A stretch of 63,204 bases of DNA, filler included, from Folioceros fuciformis (taxonomy: Eukaryota), in NCBI GenBank assembly GCA_049999805.1. It is 6 parts of 6 records of this genome, joined end to end, with 100 filler letters (N's around TTAATTAATTAA, not from the genome) between each part and the next. Parts side by side here need not be neighbours in the genome. Positions count along the whole stretch, not along the records: positions 16,830 to 39,700 come from JBNGIO010004072.1; 5 more parts are not named here. One strand, written 5' to 3'. The notes below the pieces were generated by a model. It was not told the origin of the DNA and did not search any database. It worked only from the letters and a program-made list of their open reading frames with translations. The translations under genes and the position numbers were made by a program. This document shows, in pieces, positions 7,621-60,222 of this stretch (the stretch's first letter is position 1; every line of letters begins with the position of its first letter).

Positions 7621-9443
7621 GGCTCCAGCACTATGTCCCTAGACGACTAGCTGGCACTAGGTTCATGGTCACTATAGCATGCTCATGCTATGTAAATACG
7701 TGCAACATAGCAAGTCCACAACTCTTTCCNNNNNNNNNNNNNNNNNNNNNNNNNNNNNNNNNNNNNNNNNNNNNNNNNNNNNNNNNNNNNNNNNNNNNNN
7801 NNNNNNNNNNNNNNNNNNNNNNNNNNNNNCCCAAGGACCAAGTAGCACCCTCCCCGACCTGATCCACATACCAGTTATTGGTCAACCTTGCACCTACCTC
7901 AAAACTTCAAGACCCAAGGAGGTCTTGAGCATAAATACCCTGGCCTATTTGCAACCTAAGCCGCTTTCGCATCCATCTTACCAAAAAAACAAAAACCTAC
8001 CACGTCTCGCACTTGGTGAGGGGATTTCTAACATTTTTTTGTCTACAAAGCTTTGTATAAACTCTTAATAGCTTTATTGAATAATAAAAATGCATACACA
8101 AAAATGTGTAAAATACTATCTACACAACTCTTCATGTATAACTGTGGAGGCAAAACCCCGGGCACTGATTGCCGACGGTTCCACCTTTAGTGGCCACACT
8201 TATCCCACAGTCGTTGAGACATTGGGTTCCGTTCCCACGAAGGAGCGATGGGATTCCTTGCTGCTGTGGATGGAGGGTCGGACTCAATCGACTTGATGAT
8301 GGATTTTAGGGCTCCCCTCCAGCTCCAATCACGCGTAGGATAGGCCTCACTGTCCAGCGGTCGGCTGCACCTCTCTCGGTGCCCACAAACTGATTCCAAT
8401 CACTACAATGACCCTAACCTCTCAGATCTACGACTTCCCTCACTCACTTCACTCGCTCTCTCACTCCAGCACCAACACCAGCAACTAACAACGACACCAC
8501 TACCTTCTACACTTCCCTATTGACTCCTCCTACCCGGCAAGAGTCACTAGACTAACCCCAAAGAAAAGAGAGAAGGGAACACACTCCCCTCTTGGATATC
8601 TCCTCCCTACAACCTTACTAGACGCCATGAAACATGGCCGGTCTACAACACTTGTCCAAACAGGGAACAAGAGTGGACAGGTCAAGAGAAAGACACATCC
8701 TTTACAATCAAGAGCTAGGGGCAAGCCTCTTCACCCTGGTCATTACACCTTGTGATCCTACCAGACACTGTACAACCGGCAACACGCGGCTTACGATCCT
8801 ACCAGACGTTGCACAGCCGGCAACACACTGCAGGTCCTAAACCAAGCAGGGACAGACCACAAGAGCTCATGTAGAGAGTACCTCCAAGAGCTCACGAAGT
8901 GACAGACTGACTCCCAAAGTGAATGACTACCTCCTCCTATAGGCTCACCTGATCTTATAGGAGCCTCTCTCTCTCTGACTTCACCTCTCTCTAACTTGAC
9001 AATATTATTTTAATAGGACCACTAGTCTAGCCGGCTGTCACTAGCCACTTATTTAGACTTCTAGCACATCCTGCCACCAATGAGCTGGCCCTACCACCAC
9101 AAGGATCTACCACCTCTTAGACTACCCTGAGACTTCGAAGGATGTCTGATCTTCAAAGATCTGCGGACGCCGCCTCTTCCTTGCTAGATGACCGCCCGCT
9201 ACGTCTTCCCCTGCAACTGTTCACCCTTGGTGGCTGAGCCAGCCTCTAGGGGAGGAGTATGAGTAGTGGGAAAGATAGAGAGGAGGTTGAAAGGAGTGAG
9301 ATCAGCAGCCGAAACCTGGCTTGAAAACAGTAGCTTATTCAGCGGAATCAGCTTCCAGCCGAAATGGTTCCTCGGCCATGGAAGACTGACCTTGGGGTGN
9401 NNNNNNNNNNNNNNNNNNNNNNNNNNNNNNNNNNNNNNNNNNN

Positions 9444-9455
9444 TTAATTAATTAA
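9444..9455. other. Artificial scaffold linker TTAATTAATTAA in an N-run
   Basis: Identical six-frame-stop spacer centred in N-runs at five places in the window. Confidence 0.95.
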
Positions 9456-9499
9456 NNNNNNNNNNNNNNNNNNNNNNNNNNNNNNNNNNNNNNNNNNNN

Positions 9500-16729: not shown

Positions 16730-16773
16730 NNNNNNNNNNNNNNNNNNNNNNNNNNNNNNNNNNNNNNNNNNNN

Positions 16774-16785
16774 TTAATTAATTAA
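16774..16785. other. Artificial scaffold linker TTAATTAATTAA
   Basis: Spacer within an N-run. Confidence 0.95.
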
Positions 16786-16879
16786 NNNNNNNNNNNNNNN
16801 NNNNNNNNNNNNNNNNNNNNNNNNNNNNNTTGGGGGGGTGTATCTTAAATAGAATTTGCGTTCGTTGATGCTGGGAAAC

Positions 16880-24567: not shown

Positions 24568-26766
24568 TTACCTGCTGTTGGCAGTCTTAGTCTTGCTTAG
24601 ACTTGCGAGCTCCTCTATCAACTTTCTCTCCTCGCTGCTCAAGCGCTTGGGGATCTCCACCTGCACTCGAACCAGCTGGTCCCCACGCAAATTGGGCTTC
24701 CCTAACAGTGGAACTCCCCTTTTGGCCATGACCAAAGTAGTCCCTGGCTGAGTGCCGGCAGGAATCTTCAAATCTACGGCCCCATCAACTGTCCCCACCT
24801 TTGCTGTAGTACCTAGAATAGCATCAATGTAGGAAACCTTGATCGACGTGAGAATGTTGTTCCCGTCACGTTTCAACTCTGGATCCGACTTCACATTTAT
24901 GAACACATACAGGTCTCCCGGAGGACCACCCCTCCTCCCTGCATTCCCCTCAGACCTCACCCGGAGTCGGCTGCCAGAGTCCACACCAGGTGGGACCTTC
25001 AAACTAATCTTCTTAGATTTCCTAACTCGGCCATCCCCATTGCAAGTGTTGCAAGGGCTCACAATTTCTCCTGTGCCCCCGCATGCTGGGCATGTTGAAA
25101 CCTGCCTGAAATCTCCGAGTGGAGTTTGAGCAGTCGACATAACCTGACCTTGGCCACCGCATGTCGAACAAGAACTTGGAGTAGTCCCAGGTTTTGCACC
25201 AGATCCATTACAAGTGTTGCAGGACTCTAGCCGGGTAACTTCTATGTCTCTGTCTGTCCCAAACACGGCATCTCTGAAGTCCAACAGTAAATCGTATCTC
25301 TCATCATCCCCTTGCATTGGCCTATTCCGGGCTGCTCGCNNNNNNNNNNNNNNNNNNNNNNNNNNNNNNNNNNNNNNNNNNNNNNNNNNNNNNNNNNNNN
25401 NNNNNNNNNNNNNNNNNNNNNNNNNNNNNNNNNNNNNNNACCACCCATCCCCCCCATGCTGCCAAAGAACGTCTCGAAAAGATCGAATGGATTGTTGAAG
25501 TCCTGCACATCCAAAGCACGCCAGGTAGTCAGCTAGCAAGCACACATTAAGTATGCCTACTATTGAACAAAAGGAGCAACCCTTGTAAGCCATCAAGAAA
25601 TAGCGGAATGCGCATACCGAGGCTCCTCCCGCACCAGCGCCCTTGAGACCAGCTTCCCCAAACCTATCATAGAGTGATCGCTTCTCATCATCTGACAAAA
25701 CCTGAAACAAAACCGAAGCTGAGAGTGAGGAAACAATCATCGTACCTACCAGCTGCCATTGCAGACAAGCAGTTATGCACCTAACATGTGACACTTAAAA
25801 GTTGGCACAACTAATAAAAATACCTCATACGCATTACTGATTTCCTTGAACTTCTGCTCCGCTCCTGGGTCTCTGCGAAATCCCACGGCAATCAACGACG
25901 TGAGATAAACCACTTCAGAGGACACAAGGTCTTTCACAGCGACTGCAAATAGAACTCCTGTGCTAGTCTCAGCCGACTGCCCCAAAGCAGACCACTCACT
26001 TGTTCACGTCGGGATGATACTGCCTTGCAAGCTTCCTGTAAGCTGTTATGGACAAAACCAAGTTCCGTCAGGCATTCACGTCCCTAACCAGTAAATTAGC
26101 CATATGAGCAGCTACACCTCTCCTGCCAAAAAAAGGGACCTTACCGCTTTTAATATCCGACTTGTCCGCATTTTTGTTGACACCAAGCACAGAATAGAAG
26201 TCCTGCAACGTACCGAAGGCGTTGGAATAAAGAGAAATGTTCACACATCGAGACGACAGCATGACCAAAGCTCAGCACACGGGTCATCGAGTTCGATTCA
26301 GACAAGCAGAACGGCGACACGAGACCGGAGCAAGTACCGCGCCAGCTGACACGAGGAGCCTAGAATTCCTTGTACGCCGTCCTCGCCCTGGACGCGAGAC
26401 TGACAACAGAAGAGCTCCGGATGCCATAAACTCGCTGCTCGAACCCTCAATGCCATAACTGCGCCTGCTGGATGATAACCATAAGCCTAGGTCATGGGTC
26501 AACACCAACACCCTCGTTTCTGGCCACAGTCTCTCGGAACCATGAAATCCAAAGCAGGATGGAAGCTGCCATATACTGAGCAGGGAATCCACAATCCACA
26601 AGTTTGCGGCAAACAGGTGCCACCAAAATCCCGCATTCTTGTACCTGCTCTGCGAGAAGGGAACAGCGCGGGGAAGAGAGGAGGAGGTGCTGGGCGCGCG
26701 TTGCCACACAGCCTCAAGCGGTGGTGCCTGCTGTATCGGCCTGGCTACTCCCAAGGCTCTGGCCAT
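24568..26766 (-). CDS. Chloroplast type-A DnaJ chaperone (J domain, G/F region, Zn finger, C-terminal domain)
   Basis: Exons 26766-26645, 26464-26338, 26202-26145, 26042-26000, 25872-25824, 25701-25618, 25502-24568 (N gap in the G-rich part). Contains [14 protein letters not shown], four CxxCxGxG repeats and a transit-like N-terminus. Confidence 0.93.
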
Positions 26767-27961
26767 GGTCTGCGTAAGCACGGTGGAAATTCAATCCCTG
26801 CTGAGTCGGATGATGAAACCTCGTCCCCGCCGACGTCCAGTCCAGGACAGTCGAGCCCTCGCAGGCCCCAGCAACTGGGATTGGCGACCGATGCTCCAGA
26901 GCGTCGTGATCGGAAAGTGTACAGAATCCCCGAGCTGGAGTATGCGGGGTCTCGGCCACCGGCTGGGCCGGTCGGTCGTCGGCAACGCATTAGGGTTCTC
27001 AGATATTTGGCGTTGGCACGCTGACAGTAACGACGGATTTCAGGGCCGGTGGTGGCCACGAAGCGGCCCAGGCAGGGTGAAGTAGATGCCTCTAGAAGCT
27101 CGCACCGGTTGCAGGCGGTAGAAGCCCTAGACCGTGGCTCAGGAGCAGCGGGTGGCGCACAACTTTCCATGTGGCACTGTGGCCATGTCACTGGCCAAGT
27201 GGATTGGAGAGGGTTTCCGTTTCCGAGTGTGCATCCTGAAGCTTGTGGTCGCTCTGGATGGCGTGCTGAGATGGTCAGCGGAGGCAGATGTTACAGTTTT
27301 GGAAGGCTACAGAGGAACTCAGCTTAGAAGCTTGCTTGAAGCCAACGTGAGTAGTTCCAGGAACTGTTGCCAATGACCATCCTATTACGTAGCTGCAGGC
27401 CTTCTGCTACGTAGCTCCAAGAACTGCGAGCAATGAAGATCCTTCTATGTATATCCAAGGCCGTTGTCAAGCAAGATCGGCTGCAAGATGCGCTGAAAGC
27501 TAAAGGATGTCCAGGCTCTCCTCGTCATACATTTCTCCGCATAAACCTTCATCGGACTTACCACAGCATCAACTCCAGTAGCTTTGCACATGGACAGACA
27601 AAAGAAGTCGGGAACTGTAGCTTGGAAGAAGCTCCTGTCCTCACACAGGACGTTGTGAAGCAGGTACAAGGCCGATTGGCCACGCGCTCTAGGAGAGCCG
27701 TCACCGGGAAACGTCACGAAAGCTGTTGTACGAACTTGGACCTACAATTCCGAGCAGAAACCCTAGCCAGTGAGTGAGCTCTGTTGAGGACAATCCACAT
27801 CTGATCCAAGGGGCCGAGGAGGCGCGAGGGACTAAGGTATCTTGAACAGCAACTCTCCACATTAGGGTCGTTCGGAAACGTCCAATCCAGTGAAGCCAGA
27901 ACCCGCCAGGCACGTAGCCGCTGGTTCCTTACAGACATCGCCAAATGGCCGGTAAAAGTAA

Positions 27962-27969
27962 CCACGTGG
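27962..27969. promoter_or_regulatory. Palindromic G-box/ABRE CCACGTGG upstream of ELIP
   Basis: Exact motif ~540 bp before the ELIP ATG. Other ACGT cores lie near 27911 and 28072, with TATAAAT at 28212. Confidence 0.45.
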
Positions 27970-28509
27970 CTGTGTTACTGTCTCAGGTTTCACTTCCGCA
28001 GGCGAAGCGCGCGCATGGAAGAAACAACTGGTTCGCCGTGAATTTTCGACGTCGACAAGCTCGGCAATTTAGACGTGGGATGCGGGCTTGAGAGCCACGC
28101 AGCATCTGCCGCCAGATCCCTTGCTGCTCGATCAGCGCGCGATGTATCATTCTTCGACACATCGAGAGCTACTTATTGCAGACTTCAAGAGCGCCATGTC
28201 GTACGAGCGGGTATAAATCAGCATCCCCGACCTCTAGAATCTCATTCTGTTTCTTCAGCTCCTCTACATTTTGTACATTCAGTCCGCACTGAATTGTTGT
28301 ACAAGTACAGTTGCTACAGGTTGGTCGCATCTTTGCCTCAGTTTCTTTTTAATCTTTCGTTCTTGTCCGTCGTCTTTGAGGAACTCTTGTCTCAGCATGC
28401 ACTCACGGCGGTGAACATTGCTTTCTTTCCCTCATTGAAGCCTGCCGCATTGTGCATGTGACTCAGCTAGCGAGCCAGGAGCGGCAAAGACGACGTCCAC
28501 TTCTACGAA

Positions 28510-29208
28510 ATGGCAACAGCAACGATGGCAATCACCCGCGCAACCTTCGTCCCTGCCAGCGTCAGCAGCAGCATGAGCAGTCGCACCTTCCAGTACAAAG
28601 GCCTTCCACAGCTGGCGCCTCGGCGTCAGGCCAGGATCGGTGGCATCCGGTGCGAGACCAGACCGAATGTGACGGGTCCGTTGACGGAATTGCGGGAGAA
28701 CGTGGACAGGGCAACCAAGCGCGAGATCACGAGGGAGGAGATTTTGCGCAACCAAGAGACGAATGAGTCAGAGCAACGGTCTGTGATGGGCGCTCGACCG
28801 ACAAGTGGCGCTCCCTACCCCCGCCCGGAGATTGAGCGCCGCCCGGAAACTGGCGACCGGTCCTTCACCAGCGTGTTTGCCTTCGACGGCGCTGCACCCG
28901 AGACTATCAACGGGCGTATGGCCATGGTGGGGTTTGTGTGGGCCTTGGTGGCTGAGAAACTCACGGGCTTCACAGTGGTAGAGCAGGTGTTCAACCCCTA
29001 CAGTTCTGGCCTTGTCTTCTTCATTGCCACCGTGCAAGTCTTCACCTATGCGTCGCTGGTTCCAATTGTGAACGGAGAATCGACCGACGCCAGAAGTTGG
29101 GGTCCCTTCAACGCTCGCGCAGAACGCTGGAACGGCCGCCTCGCCATGATCGGCTTCGTGGCCCTCCTCATCGACGAGGCCATCCGTCAAGGTCCCTTAA
29201 TGCACTAG
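28510..29208 (+). CDS. ELIP: Early light-induced protein (LHC superfamily), single coding exon
   Basis: Two LHC motifs, FAFDGAAPETINGRMAMVGF and AERWNGRLAMIGF, plus ASLVP and a transit-like N-terminus. Confidence 0.93.
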   Translation: MATATMAITRATFVPASVSSSMSSRTFQYKGLPQLAPRRQARIGGIRCETRPNVTGPLTELRENVDRATKREITREEILRNQETNESEQRSVMGARPTSGAPYPRPEIERRPETGDRSFTSVFAFDGAAPETINGRMAMVGFVWALVAEKLTGFTVVEQVFNPYSSGLVFFIATVQVFTYASLVPIVNGESTDARSWGPFNARAERWNGRLAMIGFVALLIDEAIRQGPLMH

Positions 29209-29568
29209 ACCGCTTGGGTTTTCAACATCTCCAGATTGAGCTTTGTACAAAGCAAACAGCTGTCTGTTTTTGTTACAGATGGGAATACCACACTGTGAGT
29301 GTGCGTGTTATATGTTTATAATAGTGTTATATGTATTTACAAACTAGGCACTTAGCATGCGAAGTTTAATATCACTACCTACTTACCTAAGATGTTAGCA
29401 CAAATCGTAACTGAAACATGCACGTTGTCCCGGTTTCCTCCCTTGGTGGTAAAGGTACGGCCGTTTTTCTGGTAGCAACCAGTCTGCGGATGTTTTTCTT
29501 GCACCGTTTAAGCGGAATGAGCGTAGGATCTGTCAGGCCTGGCAGTCCGCGCAATCGAGACAGGTGAT

Positions 29569-32500
29569 ATGCAATCGGAGGAAAGCGATGCGAGCAATCC
29601 GGAAGTGGAAGAGTCTGCAAGCACTGCACTGCTGACTAGCGCATTACATTTGCCGGCCCGGGGAGATGATGATTCCGATAGAGAGGAAAATTCGTTGTCG
29701 GGCAACGTCGAGGATAGGCCGGCCCGTGGCCAGGATGTAGCGGAAGATGAAGCAGTCGAGGATGGTGAAGACAGGGAAAGAGTGGAAGCACCCGCTGCCC
29801 CGGCGATGCCTGATGGTGGATGCGGGGAGAGCCGCGGTTCTGCTGCTACGCACATGCCGGAAGAAGCGGTTTTGGGAGAGGACGAGGGCGGGGAGGGGAA
29901 GAGTTGGGAAGCTGCCTCTGTGGCGACGGCAGTTGACGGAGTGTATGGTGAGGAACCGCCTCCGGCAGTGGTAGTGGGCGCGGATGGTGTGGCCCCTGGT
30001 GACCAGCCACAGGATCAAACCTCCGAGTCTGGGATTCTAAAAACTGTAGCAACTGAGGAGGCGGAGCAGGTCTCGGATGGTTCGTCGTCGGATGCGCCGT
30101 CATCTGTTCAAGGCCGTCAGCAGAAGGAATCCTCAACCACGGGCGTGGTTGGACTGGTTGGGGAGGAAGTGCCGGATGAGTCGGCGAGTGATGATATCAA
30201 GAAATCGTCTGCGAACTCCGAGGATTGGAGAAATGTGGACGTACATGTGTACACCAGACGAGCGCGGACAGTGGTGGCGGCCTTGTGCTCCGTTTTGGGA
30301 TTGACGAGCTTTATTTTGAGCACTGTGCTGACATACCAGATTGCGCTTCCTGGGATTCAGCATGTGTTCTTCAAGGCAAGTGCTCGGTTGACATACGTAT
30401 GACCAGTTTGTCCATCTCGTTCTGGATGTTCTAATGAGCAGAACTACGCACAGTGCTCTGCCTCACCTGACTGGTTCAAGTGCCCTTTTACTTGTTGCAG
30501 AGTCTTACCATCAGCAATGCGACGGAAGGTTTCCGCACCTCGCAGGTCTTGCCTGGCTTGTACAAGAGCTGGTACTTCTGGAACATCACAAACCCCAGCA
30601 ACTATTTGAAGGGGACTGAACCTCCCAGCCTAGAGCAGGTTGGATCTCCACATATGTTCAGCACATGTCTGTATCCGGCGCTTGCAAGTATAGGACTAGA
30701 CGCTTTGGAGGAAATGATTGTCACTTGTTTAAGTTCTGAGTACTGAGTTTTGTTAGTGCTTCACCAATCAAGTAGCAGGTTGGTCCCTACACAATGCAGC
30801 AGGTTGTGAAGGTAACAGCAGTGAGCTTCTCCAGGCAGCAAGATGAGGTCTTCAGATCAACTGTGGTGTATGGAGTGTACGATGCTGACAAGTCCTGTGC
30901 AACCTGCTCCCTGGATGATTCAGTTACTGTCGTGAACGAAATTTTCATGGCTACCATGGCCTCCCTTAATACTACTGACATAGAGCTGCTGCGTACTTTT
31001 GTTCCTGGTCTCATTACTGACGCCTTGCAACACATCGAGGGTGCTGACTCTCTTTCATATTGTAGTCTTCAGGTCATTTCCACAGTTTCCTAGCATTCTT
31101 CCAACTTCTTGTCATCTTTGTTGATGAGCGCAGAAGCAGGGACAGCTTTCACCTAACATGTCCCTCGTTTCACCTTGTAGGCTACCTTACCAAACAAGGA
31201 AAAACGCCGGCTGCTGCCAAAACACAAGCTCTTCAGCAGTTTCGGGATTGTTCGGTACTGAAAGGAAAATCAATTCGAACTGTTGATCCTACTTACAAAT
31301 GGCAGCAATTCCCTCCCGAGTACTGTGCCTGGGCCAAGTTCAAGAACATAAAGTTCGCTCCCCTTGTCATGAATGACACCGAATTCAAGTTTTTCATGTC
31401 ATTGGTCTTTTCAGGCCAACCTGACTCCGTGTCTAGTATTCTCAGGACCATCAACCCTGAGCTTGGTTTCTTCCGCAACTTGAGTTGGCTCGGCTATCAG
31501 CTCTCCATTGGTATCCTGGAGTACCTTAACTACATGACAAGCAACCCTGCAAAGGCGTTGTTTACTGAGGCCGTAATCAACAACAATGGTGGCCTCATTA
31601 TCACTCGACCTGTGAAGGAACTGCTATATGGTTATTATGACCCTTGGCTCCAGTTCATCTACGGAAACGGCAGCGATACAGCATGGGTGACACAGATACA
31701 CAGCCAAGACGCAGTGGAGAAGCCAACACGACCGTTTCCTGAAGCTCAGGGACGCATGGGCATCAAGACGGGAGCTGTTGACATCTCGAAGCTGTATTGG
31801 ATCACCCAGCAGGGCACAGTGATGAAAACGTCCCCAGCTGCTTTCAATGCCAGAGTGGTGCAATGGGAGTATGGGAATGTCACTGTTGAAGCATCCAGTG
31901 GACTCTGTTTTGGGCCACTCAAAGTGGTAAGGGGGCAGAATGTGACCATGTGGTTGGATAACTGGTTGCGGCACGTGACCCTTCAATATGTTGGAGTTGG
32001 CCACGTCCATGGCTTGGCAACATACAAATACACGCTGGATCTTTCTTCCCTCGATGTCTGTCATGCTACTCCTCCTCTCAGGTATGTTTACACCTCTGTT
32101 GCGGTTCATGAATTTTGATTTTTGAAGATGACAGAGCTACCATCCAAATCAGCATAAATGTCATCAGCTGGGATGTGTCATTGCGTTCAGTCAGTTTCAG
32201 AAAAACGTACAGGCATGTTGGCACAAAAAGGCTACTGTCAAGAGAGCTGACAGAGTAAGTGGACAGACAGACATAGATTGATGGTCTTGCCCACGGGCTC
32301 AACAGGATTACACACACAGAAGGTCCTTGTATGTATCCCAATAGATACCGTGGTCTTATCAACATGAGCCGATTCCAGGATGCTGTCTTTCAGACACTTC
32401 CACATTTCTATGGTGCTGACCCTCACGTTGCTGCCACTTTGGGGTACAATTCACAAGCCATGCAACCTGATGAGCGTTATAATCTTACCATGGATATCGA

Positions 32501-34163
32501 GCCTTCCTTCGGCGCGAGCGTAAATCTCTCATTATGGTTTCAGAAAGTTTTCCAGGTTAAGAGGATGACTCTCCTGTATCCAAGTCTCTGGCTCCTTCAA
32601 AGTAAAAGTTCGGGACCGTTCTCAGATTCCGTCTGGATTCCTCACAGTTATTACCACATTGAAGTAAGTTTACAATTTGTTTCTGCTCGACAGCTCTAGG
32701 ATTCACTCTGCCGTAGGTGCGCAATGTAAAACCGCAACAATGTTTGCTGGCACTTGACAGGCCACAGCCAACAAATCCGTTTGCGATGCACTGTCTGCTG
32801 GCACATCGATCTTCTCCGCAGTTGTCTTCTTCATGATAAACTTCGTTCCATTCGTATCTGTAGGCTGCATTGTCTGCGGTCTTCAATGCCTGTGGCGGAG
32901 AAGGCAAATGAAACTGTGCTACATGATTTGCCTTGAGGTACAAGCTTGAGTGTCCTTGATGATCTTTCCTGTTCCCACGAAGGTCTTTCCGACAAAGGGA
33001 AGTTATCTAATTGTCTTCCGTGATCTCATCAGGGTAAAACCGAGGATGCTGAACCCCCCGAGCTGATAACTGCGGTTGTGATGGATCCGACGCGTCTTCG
33101 AGAGTTTCTCGCTGGGCAGAACCGAATAGAAGCAAGGCAGAAAGCAGAGCTGAGCTGGCGACGATTCAATGAGCATATATCCGAACATAGCCGCGACCAT
33201 GAAAGGATCAAGAAGCAACATGCAGAACACCGAAACTCCGTTAGAGAAGAGCGAGAAGCTCGAGAGAAGGCAACAAGTGCAGCTTTGGAGGAACAGGCTC
33301 GAAAGGATGGTTTGAAAGAAGCTGTTTCTGCAGGCGAGCTTGAGCAAACTCGGGAAACAGGCGAAGAGCGGAGCAATTTGAGGGCACATGCAGTCTCTTT
33401 AATAGAGTCCGACGAACCCTTTACAAAGGGACAGTTAAAGTTATCGACGGCAGTCTCAAAGCAGCCATTGCGTGCCCTGGGGGAGGAAGGCTACACAAGT
33501 CCTCGGGAAGGTGGTACAGAGTGGTCAAGGACAGCTTCTCTGTTTGAAACTAGTGGCCCTGACGGCCGTTCAGTGATGGAATGGTCAAGAACTGCTTCCG
33601 TGATTGAAGCTTCGGGTTCAGACACACACGACAGCAGAGAATGGTCGAGGACTTTCTCCACCGTCGAAGCAGAGGATTCGAGCCATGATGTCATCACACA
33701 CTGGTCTAGAACAGCATCACTCATTGAAGCAGAGGAAGGCAGACTCCAGAGGCGCTTCAGATCAACCCAGGGACCAAGATTATGGATGCCATCAACCACA
33801 CCCATTCCTGAATCAAGGGTCGAGTTGCTGGAAGAACCAGATCCTGAACCACAGAGTGAGCCAGCTCCTGAACCGCAGCGTGAGCCAGATCCTGAACCGC
33901 AGCGTGAGCCAGATCCTGAACCACAACGTGATCCAGACCCTGAGCCACATCGTGAGCCAGGCCCTCAGCCACATCTTGAGCCACACCCTGAGCCAAATCG
34001 TGAGCCAGACTCTGAACCAAATCGTGAGCCAGATCCTCAAGCAGACCCTGAATCAAATTCTGGACTCAACAGTGGGCCAATATCCGAACCCGATCAGGAA
34101 CCGTCTGACAAACATGGTGCCCAACAAGATGCCGGCAAGAAGGTGACTTTCGCAGAAGACTGA
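29569..34163 (+). CDS. CD36 / scavenger receptor class B / LIMP-2 family two-TM protein (~1257 aa)
   Basis: Exons 29569-30375, 30501-30638, 30779-31040, 31181-32081, 32306-32663, 32761-32937, 33033-34163 total 3774 nt in frame. Motifs YFWNITNP..Y..G..P.LEQVGPY, ITRPVKELLYGYYDP, KTGAVDISK, GLINMS, LPHFYGADP and DIEPSFG lie between two hydrophobic helices. Confidence 0.87.
33519..33730 (+). repeat. Four 60-bp coding repeats (WSRTxS motif) in the CD36 C-tail
   Basis: EWSRTASLFE / EWSRTASVIE / EWSRTFSTVE / HWSRTASLIE at 20-aa spacing. Confidence 0.85.
33834..34055 (+). repeat. 24-bp coding minisatellite encoding EPDPEPQR-type repeats
   Basis: About 9 gagccagatcctgaaccgcagcgt-like units in tandem. 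Confidence 0.9.
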
Positions 34164-34554
34164 GTCACTGACAAGTAACACAGGCACCCCAAAGAAACGA
34201 GTGTGCCATTGCACGAGGTCACATGATCCGGCAACAACACTCATCAAATGCAATGGGCCCTAACCAGGTATTTGATTGCATCCCAAATATCCGTACTTGG
34301 TTGTGCGTTACCGGTAACCTTCTCGATCAGGTGACTGACTCTACCCGCTCTCATCTCTCGGTACCAGAGGACCAGTTGGAGCAGACTCTTGATACAGCAT
34401 TGGGTTGCATGATGGGGAGCAAACTTCTCCAAACGCCACTGTCATATGCACATGCACAGGGACCTGGAAAACTAGCATGTGAGCTCAAGAGTGCTACGTT
34501 GTGTACAAAGAGAATTGCCTCCCTCCCTTGCACACCCGCAAGCTGTTGTCGCAA

Positions 34555-35074
34555 CTAGGACCATGTAATGAATCTGGTAGCCAGCCTTATACGGTGCGAT
34601 GCCAATCTGGTAGCTTCCTGAGCAAGCGGCGCACTCACACCATCAAGTTCGAAGAGCACTTGCCCTTGCTTCACCCGAGCAATACAACCCGTGGGGTTTC
34701 CTTTCCCTTTCCCCATCCGCACCTCCGTGGGCTTGGCAGTGATGGGAATATCCGCAACCACCCGCAACCATATCTGACCGCTTCTCTTGAGCTTCCGGCT
34801 CATCACCCTCCGCGCTGCCTCAATGGCCTCGTAAGAGATCCTGCCTGGCTCGCGACTAACCAGTCCGAACTTCCCGAAAGCTAGGCGAGTGCCATCCCCC
34901 TTGATGCCGTCACACCTGCCCTTGTGGACTTTGGCACGCATGATCTGCATTCCACCGTGAGCACCGCGTAACCTGCATATCTCAAGTGAAAAATACCAAT
35001 CGCAAAGCAATCCATCACCACATTTCCCTTACCGATTTCAGGTGCGCCAAAGCTTTAGGCCCTCCCGCAGCCAT
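34555..35074 (-). CDS. rpl16: Ribosomal protein uL16, mitochondrial type, nuclear-encoded with one intron
   Basis: Exons 35074-35033 and 34944-34555: KGRC.G.K.DGT.L.FGK.G....PGRISYEAIEAARR...GQIWLRV.ADIPITAKPTEVRMGKGKGNPTG.IARV..GQVLFE.DGVS, close to land-plant mitochondrial Rpl16. Confidence 0.88.
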
Positions 35075-35351
35075 CGCCGATCTTTGATTCCTCCCACTTA
35101 CTCCGCAGTCACTTGTTGCCCTAACTAAGGCACAAGCTCAACGTTCATGCGATGTCTGGGCACGTGCAGTCGTTTAGAGACGTCGTCGCCACTCTACATA
35201 CATACAGATAGTGTCGAGATTCCGATTTACAGGCTGCCGCACTACGCCCAGGTAACCACTCGTAGTTTTAGTTTTAAATACTTTCCAGCCTATCGTCCTC
35301 CAGGGCCCGGGAAAAGTTTTGTTCTCTCGACTCCCAGCATAAACCTAAATA

Positions 35352-35397
35352 ATGCTCGGCCAAGAACTTTGGGAGCCCAAAGTTCTTTGCCGAGCAT
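35352..35397. repeat. 22-bp near-perfect inverted repeat (2-nt loop)
   Basis: atgctcggccaagaactttggg-ag-cccaaagttctttgccgagcat, with one mismatch. Confidence 0.9.
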
Positions 35398-35559
35398 AGA
35401 AAACGGAAACGGACATTTTGTCGGAAGAGGTATAAGTTTGACTCTTGCTATTTCATCCTAAAGAGGAATTAAGGGCCAGCCCGCTCAAACTTGAACACCG
35501 TTTATCCGCCCGCTTTGCTTCCGTCCAAGCGATCTGAAATGTCATGAGAATATGGACAG

Positions 35560-38500
35560 CATTCATGGAGTGTGGGCGGATTTGAAACTATTGAGACTAC
35601 TATAGCGATGGTTGGTGGTGCTCCATGTGACTTCAAGAGGGAAGGTGATGTCGGCATTGCTCAGCCCTTCCCATCTTGGCCCTTCCCATCTGTTTCTTCC
35701 TCCTTACCTCCTTTCGTCTGGGACTTCACTCACTCCATCTCCTCCTCTTGCTTGCTTGCATCTCATTTTCTTCGAAACCTGCACTCAACCCCCACCACCA
35801 TGCCTTCTCCTACTTTTGCAAGGTGGCCTATTGTTGCCAAATAGCATGCCCTCTCAGGTGGTTGTGCTAGCTTCCAACTCACAACAATTGGTGCCTACAA
35901 AACCAAACAAGGTCAACTCACAACGCAAAGCAAGTGTAGACCTTAAAGCATCTTTGCAAGGGCATGGGCACAACGTCCTAGACCAATTTAACTCGAGAGA
36001 ACTATGCCATGATCTGCGATTACTAAGAGCAAATAGATTAGTTTACAGCCTTGTTTCGATCATCAAAATGCCCAAAAATTACAGGTTATCAAGAATTAAT
36101 TGAAGAAGACCACCCTTGTAACCATGGTTGCAACTTTGTGTGAGCATGGATTCACAGCCCTTAATGGGTACAAGATTCGAAAAAGGGTGGAGTGCTATGT
36201 GGCCAAGTACAAGACAATAGCTGAATTTCTCAAGGAAACAAGGCAAGGTTTGGCCGAAGAGGAATGTAGAGTAGGTGTTACCGTTCAGAGGAAAAGTTGG
36301 GGAGTTTGTGGCCTTGCTTTGACTGGATGCATGCCATTTTTGGTGAATGGTGCAACATGAGCCCACTAGATAGTTTTAAAATCAGAATACCATCTACTAC
36401 TTCTCACAAGCCTGACTTCAACCAAACTACAATCTTTGTTGATTGTTCGAATGAGCCTGTGTAGCTAGTGGATGCTGAGCTTGGAGACCTTGAAGTCCAT
36501 GCAATTGAAGTGTCATAAACAACATCAACCTAATCACCTAAACAATCCACACACTCCCTTACCACTGCACCACTCTCTTCGAATTATGTCACTCCTCTTC
36601 TTCCTCGAATAGTCGTGCTCCCTCCTTACCATGCTAGCACTTTTTATGTTTTTCCATTAAACTTTAGAGCCAAGGTTGACTTAACAATGATGTATCTTTC
36701 AAGTCTTGGACAGCCTGAAGGTCAGTACTTCAATGTTGATCATCCATACAAACTAGCTCGCTGGGCCACCTCACTTGCCATCTCGTATTGAGCTTGGCCC
36801 CTAAAGTGATCTAGCCTAGCTTGAGTTTTCATAGATCATATGATAAAACAACGTAAATGGAAAAGAATTGCCTTCAAGAGTTCCTAAGAGCTCCAAAAGC
36901 ATGAATTGAGTTGAAGAAAGAGTTGAAATTCATAGGGTTCCAACTTCAACAAGACACCTCAAAAATAGGCTGTAAGCTTAAGTGTAAGAAGATTAAATTG
37001 TGGCAAGAGATACACAAAGGGAAGCTGGAAATGCAATTGCAAATACATGAGTTTAATGTAACCTAAGCATAGAAACATGAAGAATTTCTTGCAGACCAAG
37101 TAGAGCATCATGACTGGTACTTGGCAATTGAAAAGGAAAAATATATGCAACTTTAAGTTAATGCTAAGTGTAGAGATAGAGAATCCAAGCCTATTAGTCA
37201 ATGCCAATTGATGATCGAGGTTTGCAAGTCCAACAAGACTTTAGAAGAGATTCAAGCATACATGGCTATCACTAATGTCACTCTCTTCAAGTAGGAGATG
37301 CAATGACCTTGATGTTGATAAGTTCTATTGTTAATCGTTTTTTACTCTGTTTTGAATGGTGAGACTAGTTTCACTTTATACATGATTTTCCTAAAACTAC
37401 ATGATTTCTATTAAACATACTCTCACAAAAAAATATTTACATGTACTAATCAATGACAAATAATAGTTTAACAAAGTTTTCAATGTGTCGAACAAGATTG
37501 AGAATTGCTACTAGCTAAATCTTAATAATCCTTTTTGTTATCCATTTGAACCACAAACTGGTTCTCATTAAGGGTTACTTTTACATATTACAAAAAACAA
37601 GTCATGTATGGAGGCAACTTTCTTCAAAACGATGGAACCATAAGGCTTCTACCTTTAGTTTTTCTAGCAATACCTAACCTATTGCTTGGTATATTGCTTT
37701 TGAGGTTGATGTTCCTACACAATTGGATTGCTCCTACGTAGGTTGTTGTCTACGTCTATGGCAATTTCCAAAAGCATGTGCTATATATCATCCACAGTTT
37801 AGAAATCAGAAGTGCACATCATATAAGAATGGAGTAAAACACAAATGTGAATGCAACAATAAACACAACAGTAGTTGGCTTGTTGGTTATTTGAGTGCAA
37901 ACCTTCTTAAAGTTGAATCAACCATACTTATAACACACCAATACAATGCCACCAATACAATGCTTATTTACGTAGCATACCTTGGTAATTGTGGTGTTCA
38001 AATTTGTTTTATCTATTAATCCATAGATGTTCTTATATATAATTATTAAGTAGGAATAATTAACAGTATCACTATTCCATACATATTCAATTTCATAAAT
38101 GGCTTTAGTTTGTCAAGGTATATGGGTAGCTTAGACACACAAGAGTGTCTGACTTACAAGGGAAATATTTTGAAATACAATGTGAGATAAGATATGTCCA
38201 CCCAAGAAAAGAAGAAAAGTTGGTCTATTCTATTCATATATTGAAAGGACCTTATACACATGTCATAATGGAAAAAAATACAACGCACATTGCAAACATT
38301 TGAGCGAGCATGTCCTAGCTGCCAAATATCTTTCTAGTTCTAGACAAGAACTAGAAGAACTACAATCACTAAAAGACCAATGCATCATCACTAAATAAAT
38401 TTGTATTATTAAAAAAACTATAACAACATTGGGCCAAGTGTGGAAACCAGACGAGATTGGTATCCAAGAATTTTCACGAGTACTAACTTATTTGCTATCA

Positions 38501-39700
38501 AGAAGCTTCAATCAACTACTTAGGTCATTGCTTTCAAAAGTTATTGGTAGTAACCCACATGGGACATATTGAAAATGTGGTGACAAAAGGAAAGCGTTAT
38601 GGGCATAGGAGCTTTGGAGACGTTAAGCACATATGAAAATCTTGGAGATAAGTTGACTTGAAAACCTTGGAACTAGGTAGGTATGTGAGACAAGCATGAA
38701 ACAAGTAGAAAAAGTCTTGGAGATAAGCAAGCACTTAGAGGTAGACCAAGAAAGCTAAGCAAATTTTGGCAAATAAAAATCAATCATTTGTCATTTCACT
38801 CAAATGAGCGGTTTCAAACGACTGTCGTCTTATGATAGCTGAATGGTTGTCCCGAACCTACTTTGGCAACCTAACAACATTCTCGTTTTGTTGCCAAGCT
38901 CAACTTTGAGTCGCACTAATGTAGGGAGCCCGGGACCAATAGTCACCATCTTGCACAAGTCACTTACGTGGTGAAACTATTGAGAAACTTCGGCTGGTTT
39001 TGTTTTTTTCCGCCCTCAAAATTCCCTAACATTAGTAGAACTCAAAGCTTTTTTTACTAGCTATTTCGACATATGTCGAATCATCCATGTGAAATAAAAT
39101 TTTATTGTCAAAAAAATGAAAAATATGTTATATAAACACTTGGTTAAATTGATGAGAGTTTATGCAATGTCGAATGATCATGTCAAAAGAACGAACTAGA
39201 TAAACCTACGATGATTCTGAAGACTTAGAGGTAGCTCATGTTGTGGTGCTAATATGCTAGTAAATAGATGGTAATAGATAATGAGACATGTGAAGTTACA
39301 GTCAATTGCATACTCTCAACACAAAATTGGAAGCTCATACATTTTTAAGACCAAATGCGCTCTCTAAAACCTTATTGGTAGGCAGACATGTGGGAGACAA
39401 GTGTTCTGTGTAGAATCCCATTTTGGTGTATACCATGTTCTAGATGATCCAATTCTTTGAAATTCATATTTTTGAAAACACACTAGCTTCATGACAATGA
39501 ATGGAAAAAAAAATAAGATGAAAAGAAGGTGTTGTAGCTTGTGTAGCTAGAACAAAAATTGGTCTCAAGTTTTGGGAAGAGTCAATGTATATTATGTCTC
39601 TTCAAATATTATTATGTTGTTACTCGGCTCTTGGTGACAAGTTTCTCTTTGATAGGTTTTTTTGGCTAGATAGCCCTATGTAACCCACCAATAACATAAT
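35560..39700. mobile_element. AT-rich, highly degenerate transposon-like region; possible Harbinger Myb/SANT-like ORF remnant at 36100-36360
   Basis: No intact ORFs over 4 kb. KIRKRVECYVAKYKTIAEFLKETRQGLAEEE resembles the KY...TG.GL.E pattern recalled for Harbinger accessory proteins. Termini not found. Confidence 0.3.
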
Positions 39701-39744
39701 NNNNNNNNNNNNNNNNNNNNNNNNNNNNNNNNNNNNNNNNNNNN

Positions 39745-39756
39745 TTAATTAATTAA
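39745..39756. other. Artificial scaffold linker TTAATTAATTAA
   Basis: Spacer within an N-run. Confidence 0.95.
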
Positions 39757-39801
39757 NNNNNNNNNNNNNNNNNNNNNNNNNNNNNNNNNNNNNNNNNNNN
39801 C

Positions 39802-40734
39802 TGCACCGCTCTGCACTACGCGGCCCGAGGTGGACACACGGACCTGGCCCGGATACTGCTGCAGCGCGGCTGCTTTATCAATGCGCTAGACTGCAACGGC
39901 CGCACCCCACTCCACTTCGCGGCACAGCATGTGCGGCCAGACATCGTGGAGCTTCTCGTCAGCCGGGGGGCCGACAGGGGCATTGCCGACTCCTACGGCG
40001 CACTGCCCTGCGATGTGGCCGCCACCTGGGGCTCCTACGCCGTGCTCGATTGCTTATGGCCGCACTCCAGGCCGCACGATCGATGCACGCACCACCACTC
40101 ATCGCCGTCCGACTCCAATCCTTCCTCAGCCGGGAAACCCTCCATCGACGAGCTCCTCAATGTGTGCCGAATTGGAGAGCGGGAGGCCGGCCAACGGCTG
40201 GAGGCGCAGGCAGAGGCCACGCGCAACGCCACCGCAAGGTTACAGCTCGCGCTGGAGGAATGGCGGGACGCGGAACATTGCACCGCCAGGACAAGAAAGG
40301 CCGACCTCGCCGGCTCCTCCTCGAAAGAAGCTGCAACGGCGTTATCCGCCGTGCGCCAAGAAGATGAAGAAACAAAGGAAGCAACGGAGAACAAGAATAA
40401 CTCACAATGTACCCCTTCCGACACGGAATCCGATTACGATTCCATGCATGAGGCTCAGGTGCCGAGCATGGCCGATTTCTCGCCTCCCTCCGGATCCATC
40501 GAAGGCGGAGCAGCGGCAAGCGACGCCTGGGCAGATGCGTGGTGGTGCACCGAGTGGGAGGCTCCCTTCAGTAATTACAGTAGGAATGGTGAGCTTTTCT
40601 ACTGGGATGATGAAAACTTCGCAGCCAGGGAAAGAAAGCCACGTAACCAAACGCAGCAGACTGGACAAGCATGGTTGCAGGTTTTGGGAGATGGTCATAA
40701 GGGTATGCAAGACTCACCTGTTGCCGCTGTGTGA
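39802..40734 (+). CDS. Ankyrin-repeat protein, 5'-truncated at the scaffold start
   Basis: Open from 39802: TALHYAARGGHTDLARILLQRGCFINALDCNGRTPLHFAAQHVRPDIVELLVSRGAD...GALPCDVA, followed by a coiled/acidic tail. Confidence 0.85.
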   Translation, partial: CTALHYAARGGHTDLARILLQRGCFINALDCNGRTPLHFAAQHVRPDIVELLVSRGADRGIADSYGALPCDVAATWGSYAVLDCLWPHSRPHDRCTHHHSSPSDSNPSSAGKPSIDELLNVCRIGEREAGQRLEAQAEATRNATARLQLALEEWRDAEHCTARTRKADLAGSSSKEAATALSAVRQEDEETKEATENKNNSQCTPSDTESDYDSMHEAQVPSMADFSPPSGSIEGGAAASDAWADAWWCTEWEAPFSNYSRNGELFYWDDENFAARERKPRNQTQQTGQAWLQVLGDGHKGMQDSPVAAV

Positions 40735-46511: not shown

Positions 46512-46848
46512 TGCATCGAAACGTCTTCCACTTCCAAGGGTCACAGGATCCTACTCTAGAACGCCCATCTCCGTGTCCTCCGACCTCTACAACTGCAACA
46601 AGCCAAGTAATCCATCTCCGCCTTCCCCTCCCGCTACAAACTGCATCGTACTAGAACCCATCTCCTTCTCTTCCACTCCCACAACTTCAACATTGCAAAA
46701 ACCTATGCTCCATCTCCAACACTCCTACGACTGCAACACGAAAGAACCCACGACCGACTCCACCTCCTACTCCTGCAAATGCTGGCAAAGCATGCAACGA
46801 CACANNNNNNNNNNNNNNNNNNNNNNNNNNNNNNNNNNNNNNNNNNNN

Positions 46849-46860
46849 TTAATTAATTAA
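46849..46860. other. Artificial scaffold linker TTAATTAATTAA
   Basis: Spacer within an N-run. Confidence 0.95.
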
Positions 46861-46906
46861 NNNNNNNNNNNNNNNNNNNNNNNNNNNNNNNNNNNNNNNN
46901 NNNNGG

Positions 46907-53206: not shown

Positions 53207-54148
53207 ATGACCTCGAGCGCCGCATCCTCTCTCCTCACCACCGGCGCGCCCTCCACGCTCCTCTCCGATGAAAGGCTCCGAGAAGCGGAGCAGAATTTGA
53301 AGAGGGCGGACACGCTCTCCAGGCTGAGCTTCACGCGATGGTACTCGGATTGGGCCGAGGCCACGCCGCTGTACGAGGCTGCCGCTTCCGCATTCAAGCT
53401 GGCAAAGAAGGCGGAGAGAGCCAAGGAATGCTTCGAGCGTGCGTCGCTAGGGCACGAGCGGCAGGGCTCGCTCTGGCAGGCGGGCAAGCACTTGGAATCC
53501 GCGGGGTCCATGGCCAAGGAGCTGCACAGGTATCCGGAGGTTGCCGCTTTCTTCAGGAGGGCCGCCGAGTTCTATACAGCCTGCGGGAAACCCCAGCCTG
53601 CAGCGGAGGCGCTCCACAAGGGGGCCAGGGCTTTGGAGGACGGAAATGCCGATGAGGCCGTGAGGATGTATCTGGATGCTTGTGTCATTCTGGAGGACGA
53701 GGACAAGGAGCAGATGGCGTTCGAAACCTACAGATCTGCAGCCAATTTGTTTCTGAAACAGGAGAGGTACCCCGACGCCGCCGCGGTGCTCTTGCGATGG
53801 AGCCTCGGAGCGGATAAATGCCACGCCGTGCAAACGCAATGCAGAGCCTACCTCAGCGCCATCATCGTCTACCTCTACGCGGAAAATCTCAAAGATGCCG
53901 AGCAGTGCTTCAATGACAGCGTCAATATGGATGCGTTTTTGAACAGCGACTACCACAGGTGTGCCGAGGTGTTGCTTGCGGCATACAGGGAGGGTGCTCA
54001 GGAGCAGATCAAACATCTCATCAATAAGAGTAGCGTGGTTGAGCAGCTTGATCACGTCATTATCAAGATAGCCAAAAAATTGCCCAGGGGCGATTTATCT
54101 GCCTTGGTATCTATGTCGGATTACCTTGATGAACATGACCTCACTTGA
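53207..54148 (+). CDS. Gamma-soluble NSF attachment protein, intronless
   Basis: RADTLSRLSFTRWYSDW.EATPLYE.AA..F, FERAS.G.E...S.WQAGKHLESA, Y..CGKPQPAAEAL.KGARALE, AYLSAIIVYLY and C-terminal LDEHDLT match plant gamma-SNAP. Confidence 0.92.
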   Translation: MTSSAASSLLTTGAPSTLLSDERLREAEQNLKRADTLSRLSFTRWYSDWAEATPLYEAAASAFKLAKKAERAKECFERASLGHERQGSLWQAGKHLESAGSMAKELHRYPEVAAFFRRAAEFYTACGKPQPAAEALHKGARALEDGNADEAVRMYLDACVILEDEDKEQMAFETYRSAANLFLKQERYPDAAAVLLRWSLGADKCHAVQTQCRAYLSAIIVYLYAENLKDAEQCFNDSVNMDAFLNSDYHRCAEVLLAAYREGAQEQIKHLINKSSVVEQLDHVIIKIAKKLPRGDLSALVSMSDYLDEHDLT

Positions 54149-59780: not shown

Positions 59781-60166
59781 AGCAGGTCTGGTACAAAGGT
59801 TTCTTTAAAGAACATGTATGTTCGCTTTGGGTTTGGCTACGAACATTTAGCTTCTGAAATAAAAATCCACACCAGCCATTTGTGCCTTCTGTATGAGTAG
59901 GTATTAGGTTTAGAACTTCAGCACCATCCTCACTATTTTAGCACAATGCATTCTCATGGTTCCAATTTACACAGGTCATGCTAGTTTAGGGTTTATGATT
60001 GGGCCTTGGTGGTGGATGGAGGCATTGGGTTGCGACCTCGGGTTTAGGGTTCCTCTTTTTAGGTTTGGGGCTACATGGTGGATGTGTTGGGTTTCCCTCC
60101 TCTCCACTCTCAATCTCACACANNNNNNNNNNNNNNNNNNNNNNNNNNNNNNNNNNNNNNNNNNNN

Positions 60167-60178
60167 TTAATTAATTAA
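60167..60178. other. Artificial scaffold linker TTAATTAATTAA
   Basis: Spacer within an N-run. Confidence 0.95.
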
Positions 60179-60222
60179 NNNNNNNNNNNNNNNNNNNNNN
60201 NNNNNNNNNNNNNNNNNNNNNN

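Follow-up and report, generated by a model that had tools for sequence, protein, structure and literature searches.

The vertebrate class B scavenger receptors (SR-Bs) LIMP-2/SCARB2 (4F7B, 4Q4B, 4TVZ, 5UPH), CD36 (5LGD) and SR-BI are hairpins, in which an ectodomain is held between two transmembrane (TM) segments and both ends of the protein are cytosolic. The group has been defined operationally by the succession TM-CD36-TM (PMC10715195, section 5). The same study reports a search of 165 proteomes with the CD36 profile PF01130, in which seven chlorophytes but no streptophyte yielded SR-Bs, and its sections 5 and 12 infer a loss of SR-Bs in streptophytes. We describe here a CD36-type gene from Folioceros fuciformis (assembly GCA_049999805.1), located at positions 29569-34163, on the + strand, of a stretch of 63,204 nucleotides that was analysed as a whole and is called the window below. 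The window consists of six joined parts, which are not necessarily neighbours in the genome, and the gene lies on the part taken from JBNGIO010004072.1 (positions 16,830-39,700).

Like the vertebrate receptors, the gene encodes a two-pass membrane protein with both tails on the same side of the membrane. Judged from its sequence, it is a genuine CD36/SR-B-type gene of TM-CD36-TM architecture, with unusually long tails. We consider it probable that it is a genuine, selectively maintained CD36/SR-B/LIMP-2 member of a small streptophyte-specific branch, whose full-length messenger RNA (mRNA) would be minor or condition-specific. No second copy of the gene is present within the window.

Family membership and gene structure

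Family membership was assessed with PF01130 (profile length 463, family cut-off 26.5 bits), scored exon by exon and not on the joined protein. Exon 2 reaches 17.6 bits over profile positions 47-76, below the cut-off, exon 3 27.9 bits over positions 76-143, exon 4 49.3 bits (E 3.4e-13) over positions 134-303 and exon 5 32.8 bits over positions 313-396. The four matches are colinear and span positions 47-396 of the profile, and the family assignment made in the initial annotation is borne out by exons 3, 4 and 5, each of which exceeds the cut-off alone. When the raw frames are scored, four of the seven match, again in order (positions 31-80, E 5.1e-5; 76-147, E 1.7e-6; 134-303, E 4.6e-13; 313-396, E 3.2e-8). 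Two further comparisons point to the same family. A profile of the streptophyte group finds eight distinct sequences in the PDB: LIMP-2/SCARB2 accounts for seven (E 4.3e-7 to 5.5e-7) and CD36 for the eighth (E 6.2e-6). In an Atlas feature search, the three best of 30 rows are CD36 clusters, with scores of 0.95-0.96, and 28 of the 30 carry the same family set.

The gene is made of seven coding blocks, lying in stop-to-stop frames on the + strand (29527-34163). Once joined, the seven exons amount to 3777 nucleotides and 1258 amino acids with zero internal stops, in line with the single frame of ~1257 amino acids proposed earlier, a length that is obtained if an acceptor three nucleotides downstream (30779) is used for exon 3. 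As the chance of 1258 open codons is (61/64)^1258, or about 6e-27, a chance frame is excluded. Introns are 95-224 nucleotides long, and their guanine-cytosine (GC) content is 0.42-0.49, compared to 0.52 for the exons.

Splice sites were placed from the sequence, and two of them were corrected with the evidence of RNA contigs. These contigs come from four runs, X1, X2, X3 and X8, which we guessed to be RNA, and were placed on the window at a likeness of at least 90%. X1 is 100% identical to the window, while X2, X3 and X8 are 90-99% alike and stem from other organisms. Since the contigs skip introns, they are derived from RNA. Parts left uncovered in X3 and X8 were not used as evidence. An alternative model of 1244 amino acids, with exon 5 starting at 32345 and exon 3 at 30779, was replaced on the basis of these contigs.

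Exon 1 (29569-30375) contains the start ATG, which is the first in a frame open from 29527, an acidic N-tail of 232 residues, the first hydrophobic segment (~30262-30348) and the start of the ectodomain. Because the N-tail and the first TM segment are within this one exon, their association is not a gene-model fusion. Intron 1 (30376-30500, 125 nucleotides) is of the GC-AG type, with the donor aag/GCAAGT, and its joint (30373>30499, with a two-nucleotide ambiguity) is found in contigs of X1, X2, X3 and X8. Exon 2 (30501-30638) runs from the YFWNITNP motif to LEQ and aligns with proteins of the algae Chlorokybus and Mesostigma. It is followed by intron 2 (30639-30775, 137 nucleotides, GT-AG), which is removed in some RNA contigs, namely X8 contig 17 and an X1 contig with a loose end at 30638, and kept in others.

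In the in-frame model, exon 3 (30776-31040) carries the QVGPY motif, a CxxC pair and the start of an insertion in the ectodomain apex, and intron 3 occupies 31041-31180 (140 nucleotides). Its donor at 31040 (agg/GTGCTG) is the best of six that are frame-compatible with the acceptor at 31181, and the resulting exon 3-4 junction leaves no gap relative to either algal protein, P0004 of Chlorokybus and P0008 of Mesostigma. The donors at 30992, 31007, 31061 and 31064 were rejected, their consensus or their fit to homologue spacing being poorer. The donor at 31072 can also be joined in frame, to an acceptor at 31237 or 31240, yet this removes residues conserved in the relatives P0001-P0004 and P0008, and this solution was discarded too.

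Exon 4 (31181-32081) completes the apex insertion, which extends to ~31519, and encodes the CD36 domain in its central portion, with conservation of a Cys pair and of the YGYYDPW block. A low-depth X3 contig (depth 2, shorter side 30 letters) joins 31210 to 31297 with CT..AC ends, which are GT..AG on the minus strand, and could reflect an antisense splice inside this exon. Intron 4 (32082-32305, 224 nucleotides, GT-AG) is spliced in one relative, X3, where a loose end before 32303 reads like the end of exon 4 of that organism. Exon 5 (32306-32663) contains a conserved Cys and the LPHFYGADP, DIEP..G and VWIP motifs; it is the acceptor at 32306 that restores this Cys, aligned with a Cys of P0004 and P0008.

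Intron 5 (32664-32760, 97 nucleotides, GT-AG) has its joint, 32663>32761, in X1 and X2. Exon 6 (32761-32937) encodes the second hydrophobic segment (~32809-32895), followed by WRRR and by a cluster of five Cys on the cytosolic side, directly after the TM segment (amino acids 859-880). Intron 6 (32938-33032, 95 nucleotides, GT-AG) is also joined in X1 and X2 (32935>33031, cut +2), so that the C-tail and the receptor are on one RNA. Finally, exon 7 (33033-34163), covered by X1 contigs 3 and 4, provides 376 residues of the C-tail and the stop codon TGA (34161-34163). The whole is also held together by two long contigs: X2 contig 6 (29457-32938) joins the N-tail to exon 6, crossing intron 1, and X1 contig 3 (30649-33895) joins exon 3 to the C-tail. 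Their linkage shows one gene and not a fusion.

The predicted protein has hydrophobic segments only at amino acids 232-260 and 829-868 (Kyte-Doolittle, windows of 21 residues above 1.5). Both TM segments, the WRRR that follows the second and the canonical order of the CD36 motifs are as the initial annotation had described them, and the tails, which it had put at ~235 acidic residues and ~390 residues, measure 232, with a net charge of -39, and 390. The ectodomain between the segments has ~566 residues, with 11 N-x-S/T sequons and seven Cys, and its three Cys pairs are conserved in relatives. Ordered PF01130 matches and many N-glycan sequons are traits of the vertebrate SR-Bs as well. Those receptors differ by an ectodomain of ~400 residues without the apex insertion of ~130 residues, and by short tails. 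The last ~65 positions of the Pfam profile are, moreover, unmatched in the window protein.

Relatives, ectodomain insertion and tails

Relatives were sought with HMMER, exon 4 serving as query against all of 1.84 billion representative proteins, and only nine proteins are retrieved at E<=0.001. Eight were looked up, leaving out P0009 (5236 amino acids, E 6e-4): two belong to streptophyte algae, one to an archaeal metagenome-assembled genome and five have no assigned taxon (P0001-P0003, P0005 and P0007). All seven relatives that were scanned match PF01130. P0001, P0002 and P0003 are single-exon fragments from run assemblies, 54%, 39% and 30% identical to exon 4, respectively. P0004, from Chlorokybus atmophyticus (789 amino acids), matches exon 4 at E 3.2e-10 and PF01130 at 156 bits, and P0008, from Mesostigma viride (695 amino acids), at E 2.5e-4 and 88.5 bits. 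P0006, the Hodarchaeales protein, is a weak match to exon 4. P0005 (1033 amino acids) and P0007 (491 amino acids) are also weak against exon 4, but they are strong CD36-family proteins (277 and 213 bits).

Among full-length relatives, the nearest are the two uncharacterised EukProt proteins of streptophyte algae, and not those of animals or other protists. Both give an end-to-end alignment with the spliced model, at 27% identity over 745 columns for P0004 and 26% over 635 columns for P0008. All three proteins have the N-terminal motifs and the DIEP and VWIP blocks in common, and likewise three Cys pairs: the CxxC, one within the insertion and a C...C preceding the PHF motif. P0004 and P0008 can be placed in the same subfamily as the window protein on these grounds. 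The chlorophyte SR-Bs of seven taxa (PMC10715195, section 5) are further members of the family in the green lineage; the exon 4 query retrieved none of them at E<=0.001.

Among the eight proteins looked up of the nine matches, no homologue is assigned to a land plant, and the initial statement that no characterised angiosperm member is known holds at this scale. The literature search likewise found no paper describing a land-plant CD36/SR-B member: CD36 combined with hornwort gave no paper, and CD36 combined with streptophytes gave only PMC10715195 as relevant by title or abstract. Two metagenome scans for relatives matched 520 and 30 pattern stretches, none of which was confirmed. The gene probably forms with the Chlorokybus and Mesostigma proteins a small streptophyte-specific SR-B branch, and as a family member it is new for the lineage.

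The insertion seen by the initial annotation in the ectodomain is real. It is ~130 residues long, has no Pfam match, falls between profile positions 143 and 134 and is conserved in P0001-P0004 and P0008. Published descriptions of long SR-Bs put their apex expansions at this very position; in Dictyostelium LmpA and in oomycete and ciliate SR-Bs, as in the window protein, the expansion is located between the N-terminal strands and the GG..TR..E....D block (PMC10715195, section 10). The insertion modules of P0005 and P0007 can be partly aligned to that of the window gene, although both proteins, like the long protist SR-Bs, are only 23-25% identical to it and have short tails, and P0005 repeats the apex module several times. 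Being conserved in relatives and located at a known site of apex expansion, the insertion is a subfamily trait common to Chlorokybus, Mesostigma and other long SR-Bs, and not unique to the window gene.

It is the tails that set the window gene apart. According to the alignment, those of P0004 and P0008 are much shorter (N-tails of ~100 and 12 residues, C-tails of ~60-70 residues), and these proteins, from algae at the base of Streptophyta, lack the repeats described below. The tails of the window protein are low-complexity repeats without a domain: no Pfam family is above its cut-off in them, and an Atlas search with the C-tail gave no usable match. The C-tail comprises four 20-residue repeats with an exact spacing of 20 residues and a WSRT(A/F)S core (33516-33755), then eight 8-residue repeats of the EPDPEPQR type, which are encoded by a tandem repeat at 33837-34037 (period 24 nucleotides, 8.4 copies). 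One acidic di-leucine-type motif is present ~25 residues after the second TM segment (33051-33068).

Transcripts, selection and alternative readings

Several results weigh against our reading of the gene as a maintained receptor, and most of them come from the transcripts. The RNA contigs support five of the six model introns (1, 2, 4, 5 and 6) but not the in-frame version of intron 3: the junction from 31040 to 31181 occurs in no contig of X1, X2, X3 or X8, although assembled contigs drop rare variants, rare isoforms included. What X1, X2 and X3 contain instead is a join of 31072 to 31181 (joint 31070>31179, GT..AG when cut +2), with an intron of 108 nucleotides (31073-31180). The observed donor lies 32 nucleotides downstream of the in-frame one, and the frame then shifts and stops at amino acid 441. 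Introns are, in addition, often kept: intron 2 in X2 contig 6 and partly in X1 contig 3, intron 3 in X8 contig 17 and X3 contig 11, intron 4 in X1 contig 3 and X2 contig 6, and intron 5 in X3 contig 16. For both X1 and X2, it is the longest contigs that keep introns 2 and 4, and no productive mRNA for the whole protein is found among the contigs of the four organisms. The initial description of the gene as intact therefore stands for its frame, open over all 1258 codons, but not for its exon 3-4 junction.

The structural models and the functional predictions weigh on the same side. AlphaFold2 gives a mean predicted local distance difference test score (pLDDT) of 42.3 for exon 4 alone, from a shallow alignment of six rows. 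For the Chlorokybus protein, the mean pLDDT is 41.9 from an 11-row alignment, with confidence limited to residues ~255-340, which form the helical insertion module. With such low-confidence models (pLDDT ~42), Foldseek finds zero matches in the PDB at E<=0.001; LIMP-2 appears at rank 3 over 79 columns and was not counted as evidence. We infer the barrel fold and its tunnel from family membership, the models at pLDDT ~42 being too poor to judge them. Location, ligand and tail function of the predicted receptor are inferences in the same sense, as are the signalling tail and the part in lipid sensing or microbe recognition that the initial annotation suggested, and the single di-leucine-type motif, close to the chance expectation in an acidic tail of 390 residues, is a hint only.

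These observations could be explained if, in this genus, the locus were transcribed but had ceased to produce the complete receptor. One would then be dealing with a very young unitary pseudogene, or a non-coding locus, in which splicing has drifted to an out-of-frame donor and introns are poorly removed. Such a state would account for the sole exon 3-4 junction seen, which is out of frame in three organisms and leads to the stop at amino acid 441, and for introns 2, 3, 4 and 5 each being kept in at least one contig. It would also agree with a word-index search of a 5.8-billion collection, in which no annotated protein containing exon 4 is found (0 of 1882 'longer' candidates, and P0001 only among 440 'near' ones). 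All seven exons are nevertheless open, over 1258 codons. The same out-of-frame junction is, besides, found in three diverged species and hence predates their split, yet zero stops or frameshifts have accumulated. As a frame dead since before the species split would hold stops and none is seen, we read the gene as functional.

Comparison with X2 speaks in the same direction. All indels listed outside exon 1 are within intron 2 or intron 4 (a 1-nucleotide deletion at 30679 in the former; 32149, 32177 and 32224 in the latter), so that the ectodomain exons are avoided, and exon 1 has three indels summing to 6 nucleotides. The segment made of the 5' leader and the N-tail (29457-30373) shows 137 differences over 917 nucleotides, compared to 22 over 572, 65 over 1485 and 5 over 178 for the ectodomain segments, where divergence is lower by a factor of 3 to 5. 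Selection is indicated by the open frames, by the restriction of indels to introns and by this lower divergence of the ectodomain, and we regard the loss of the full receptor in the genus as unlikely.

Another possibility is that the true product is the short form encoded through the junction at 31072, a protein of ~440 residues made of the N-tail, the first TM segment and the first ~180 residues of the ectodomain, the downstream exons being untranslated. This junction is indeed the one assembled in X1, X2 and X3. Such a product would nevertheless lack most of the CD36 barrel and the second TM segment, and long open frames as well as motifs of the family persist in the exons further downstream. 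A premature stop well upstream of the last exon normally triggers mRNA decay, and here the stop would be five junctions before that exon. This short form is, in our view, improbable as the true product.

Genomic surroundings and predicted function

The window contains several genes of plant type, namely ELIP-like, PP2C, ankyrin, intron-bearing PPR, TAF8, gamma-SNAP and mitochondrial uL16 genes. Genes are compact, introns short and GC content near 0.5. An Rfam scan of the window gives zero families. Two of these genes are on the same part as the CD36-type gene. Upstream, an intronless ELIP-like gene for a chlorophyll a/b-binding protein (28510-29208, + strand; PF00504, E 3.7e-11) has an RNA contig that reaches 29484, ~85 nucleotides before the CD36 start codon, which is very tight packing. 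Downstream and convergent, a nuclear gene for the mitochondrial ribosomal protein uL16m (34555-35200, - strand) has an intron of 88 nucleotides (34945-35032), which X1 shows removed. The 3' ends of the CD36-type and uL16m genes are both covered by a single RNA contig (33893-34944).

A foreign origin of the CD36-type gene, either through a contaminating contig or through recent transfer out of an animal or a protist, would be in keeping with the reported absence of CD36 from streptophytes (PMC10715195, sections 5 and 12), but it is highly improbable for a gene that lies between the ELIP-like and uL16m genes with no run of N over 25440-39700, shares an RNA contig with the uL16 transcript at its 3' end, has introns similar in length to the one uL16m intron seen and lower in GC than its exons, recurs in near-identical or 90-95% alike RNA contigs of four organisms and has streptophyte algae as its nearest full-length relatives.

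The neighbouring genes also bear on the position of the organism. The best solved relatives of uL16m are plant mitoribosomal uL16m (E ~1e-43), compared to E 8e-22 for another mitoribosome entry, presumably that of Chlamydomonas. In most land plants, uL16 is encoded in the mitochondrion. Many mitochondrial ribosomal protein genes have been lost in hornworts, Isoetes and Selaginella, and kept in Chara, Marchantia, Physcomitrella and Huperzia, as far as PMC3325193 documents them. A nuclear uL16m gene fits the lineages with such losses, i.e. hornworts, Isoetes and Selaginella. The gamma-SNAP gene (53207-54148, + strand, intronless, 313 amino acids) has 236 matches at E<=1e-40; the best 120 of these 236 have identities of 51-62%, and wherever an organism is named among them it is a land plant. 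A tree was made from the window gamma-SNAP and 29 of the 120, picked to sample a range of taxa and as the top matches lacking an organism name, without any algal sequence and with the Ginkgo label guessed from a 'Gb_' tag. The window branches outside both ferns and seed plants (support 99/97) and shares an unresolved group with a liverwort and two lycophytes. The nearest relative, P0013, is a protein from a run assembly, 59% identical and sister to the window (support 97/90). Together, these neighbouring genes assign the window to Streptophyta, beyond the ferns and seed plants, and with the compact genes, the short introns and the GC content near 0.5 they make a land plant, perhaps of hornwort type, the likely host, a streptophyte alga being the less likely one.

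Elsewhere in the window, GC content falls to 0.36-0.37 at 36001-40000, compared to ~0.5 for the rest, which may reflect a repeat or a mobile element. Pairs of 44-N runs split by 12 letters, at 9400-9499, 16730-16829, 39701-39800, 46805-46904 and 60123-60222, are the filler that joins the parts; the window further holds five runs of 100 N and one of 10 N.

If the CD36-type gene is maintained as we propose, family resemblance suggests how its product might work. The ectodomain would form a beta-barrel with a hydrophobic tunnel, through which lipids, sterols or carotenoid-like cargo could pass between the lumenal or extracellular side and the membrane, and the enlarged helical apex could bind the ligand. 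In a walled, non-phagocytic cell, the receptor seems likelier to act in the manner of LIMP-2, in a membrane of the vacuole or endosome, than to take up cargo at the surface. LIMP-2 sorting uses an acidic di-leucine motif, and the window protein has one motif of this type close to the membrane. CD36 is palmitoylated at Cys beside its second TM segment, where the window protein also has Cys, and its cluster may be acylated in the same way. The long, acidic and repeat-rich tails are probably disordered platforms for docking or phosphorylation, and the four WSRT(A/F)S repeats would fit the site of a kinase directed by basic residues. The mRNA made through the donor at 31040 would be a minor or condition-specific isoform, expression being possibly gated by the choice of the alternative 5' splice site together with intron retention.

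A more ambitious scenario, which we put forward as speculative and rather doubtful, goes further. A bryophyte-grade land plant, perhaps a hornwort, might have kept an ancestral CD36-type lipid receptor lost by every other sampled embryophyte and added long, repeat-bearing cytosolic tails to it. Detained introns, together with an out-of-frame 5' splice site that has been conserved, might keep the gene silent, the full receptor being made only in a particular setting, for example gametes, spores or microbial symbiosis.

The window gene and the Chlorokybus and Mesostigma proteins together indicate that SR-Bs of a separate branch have survived within Streptophyta, probably into a non-seed land plant. 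This survival changes the account of SR-B loss given in sections 5 and 12 of PMC10715195. If confirmed with reads, the conserved unproductive splicing would be a case of splicing-gated expression. The gene would, moreover, give plant research a model of receptors that are familiar from lipid uptake in animals, from the biology of lysosomes and from innate immunity.

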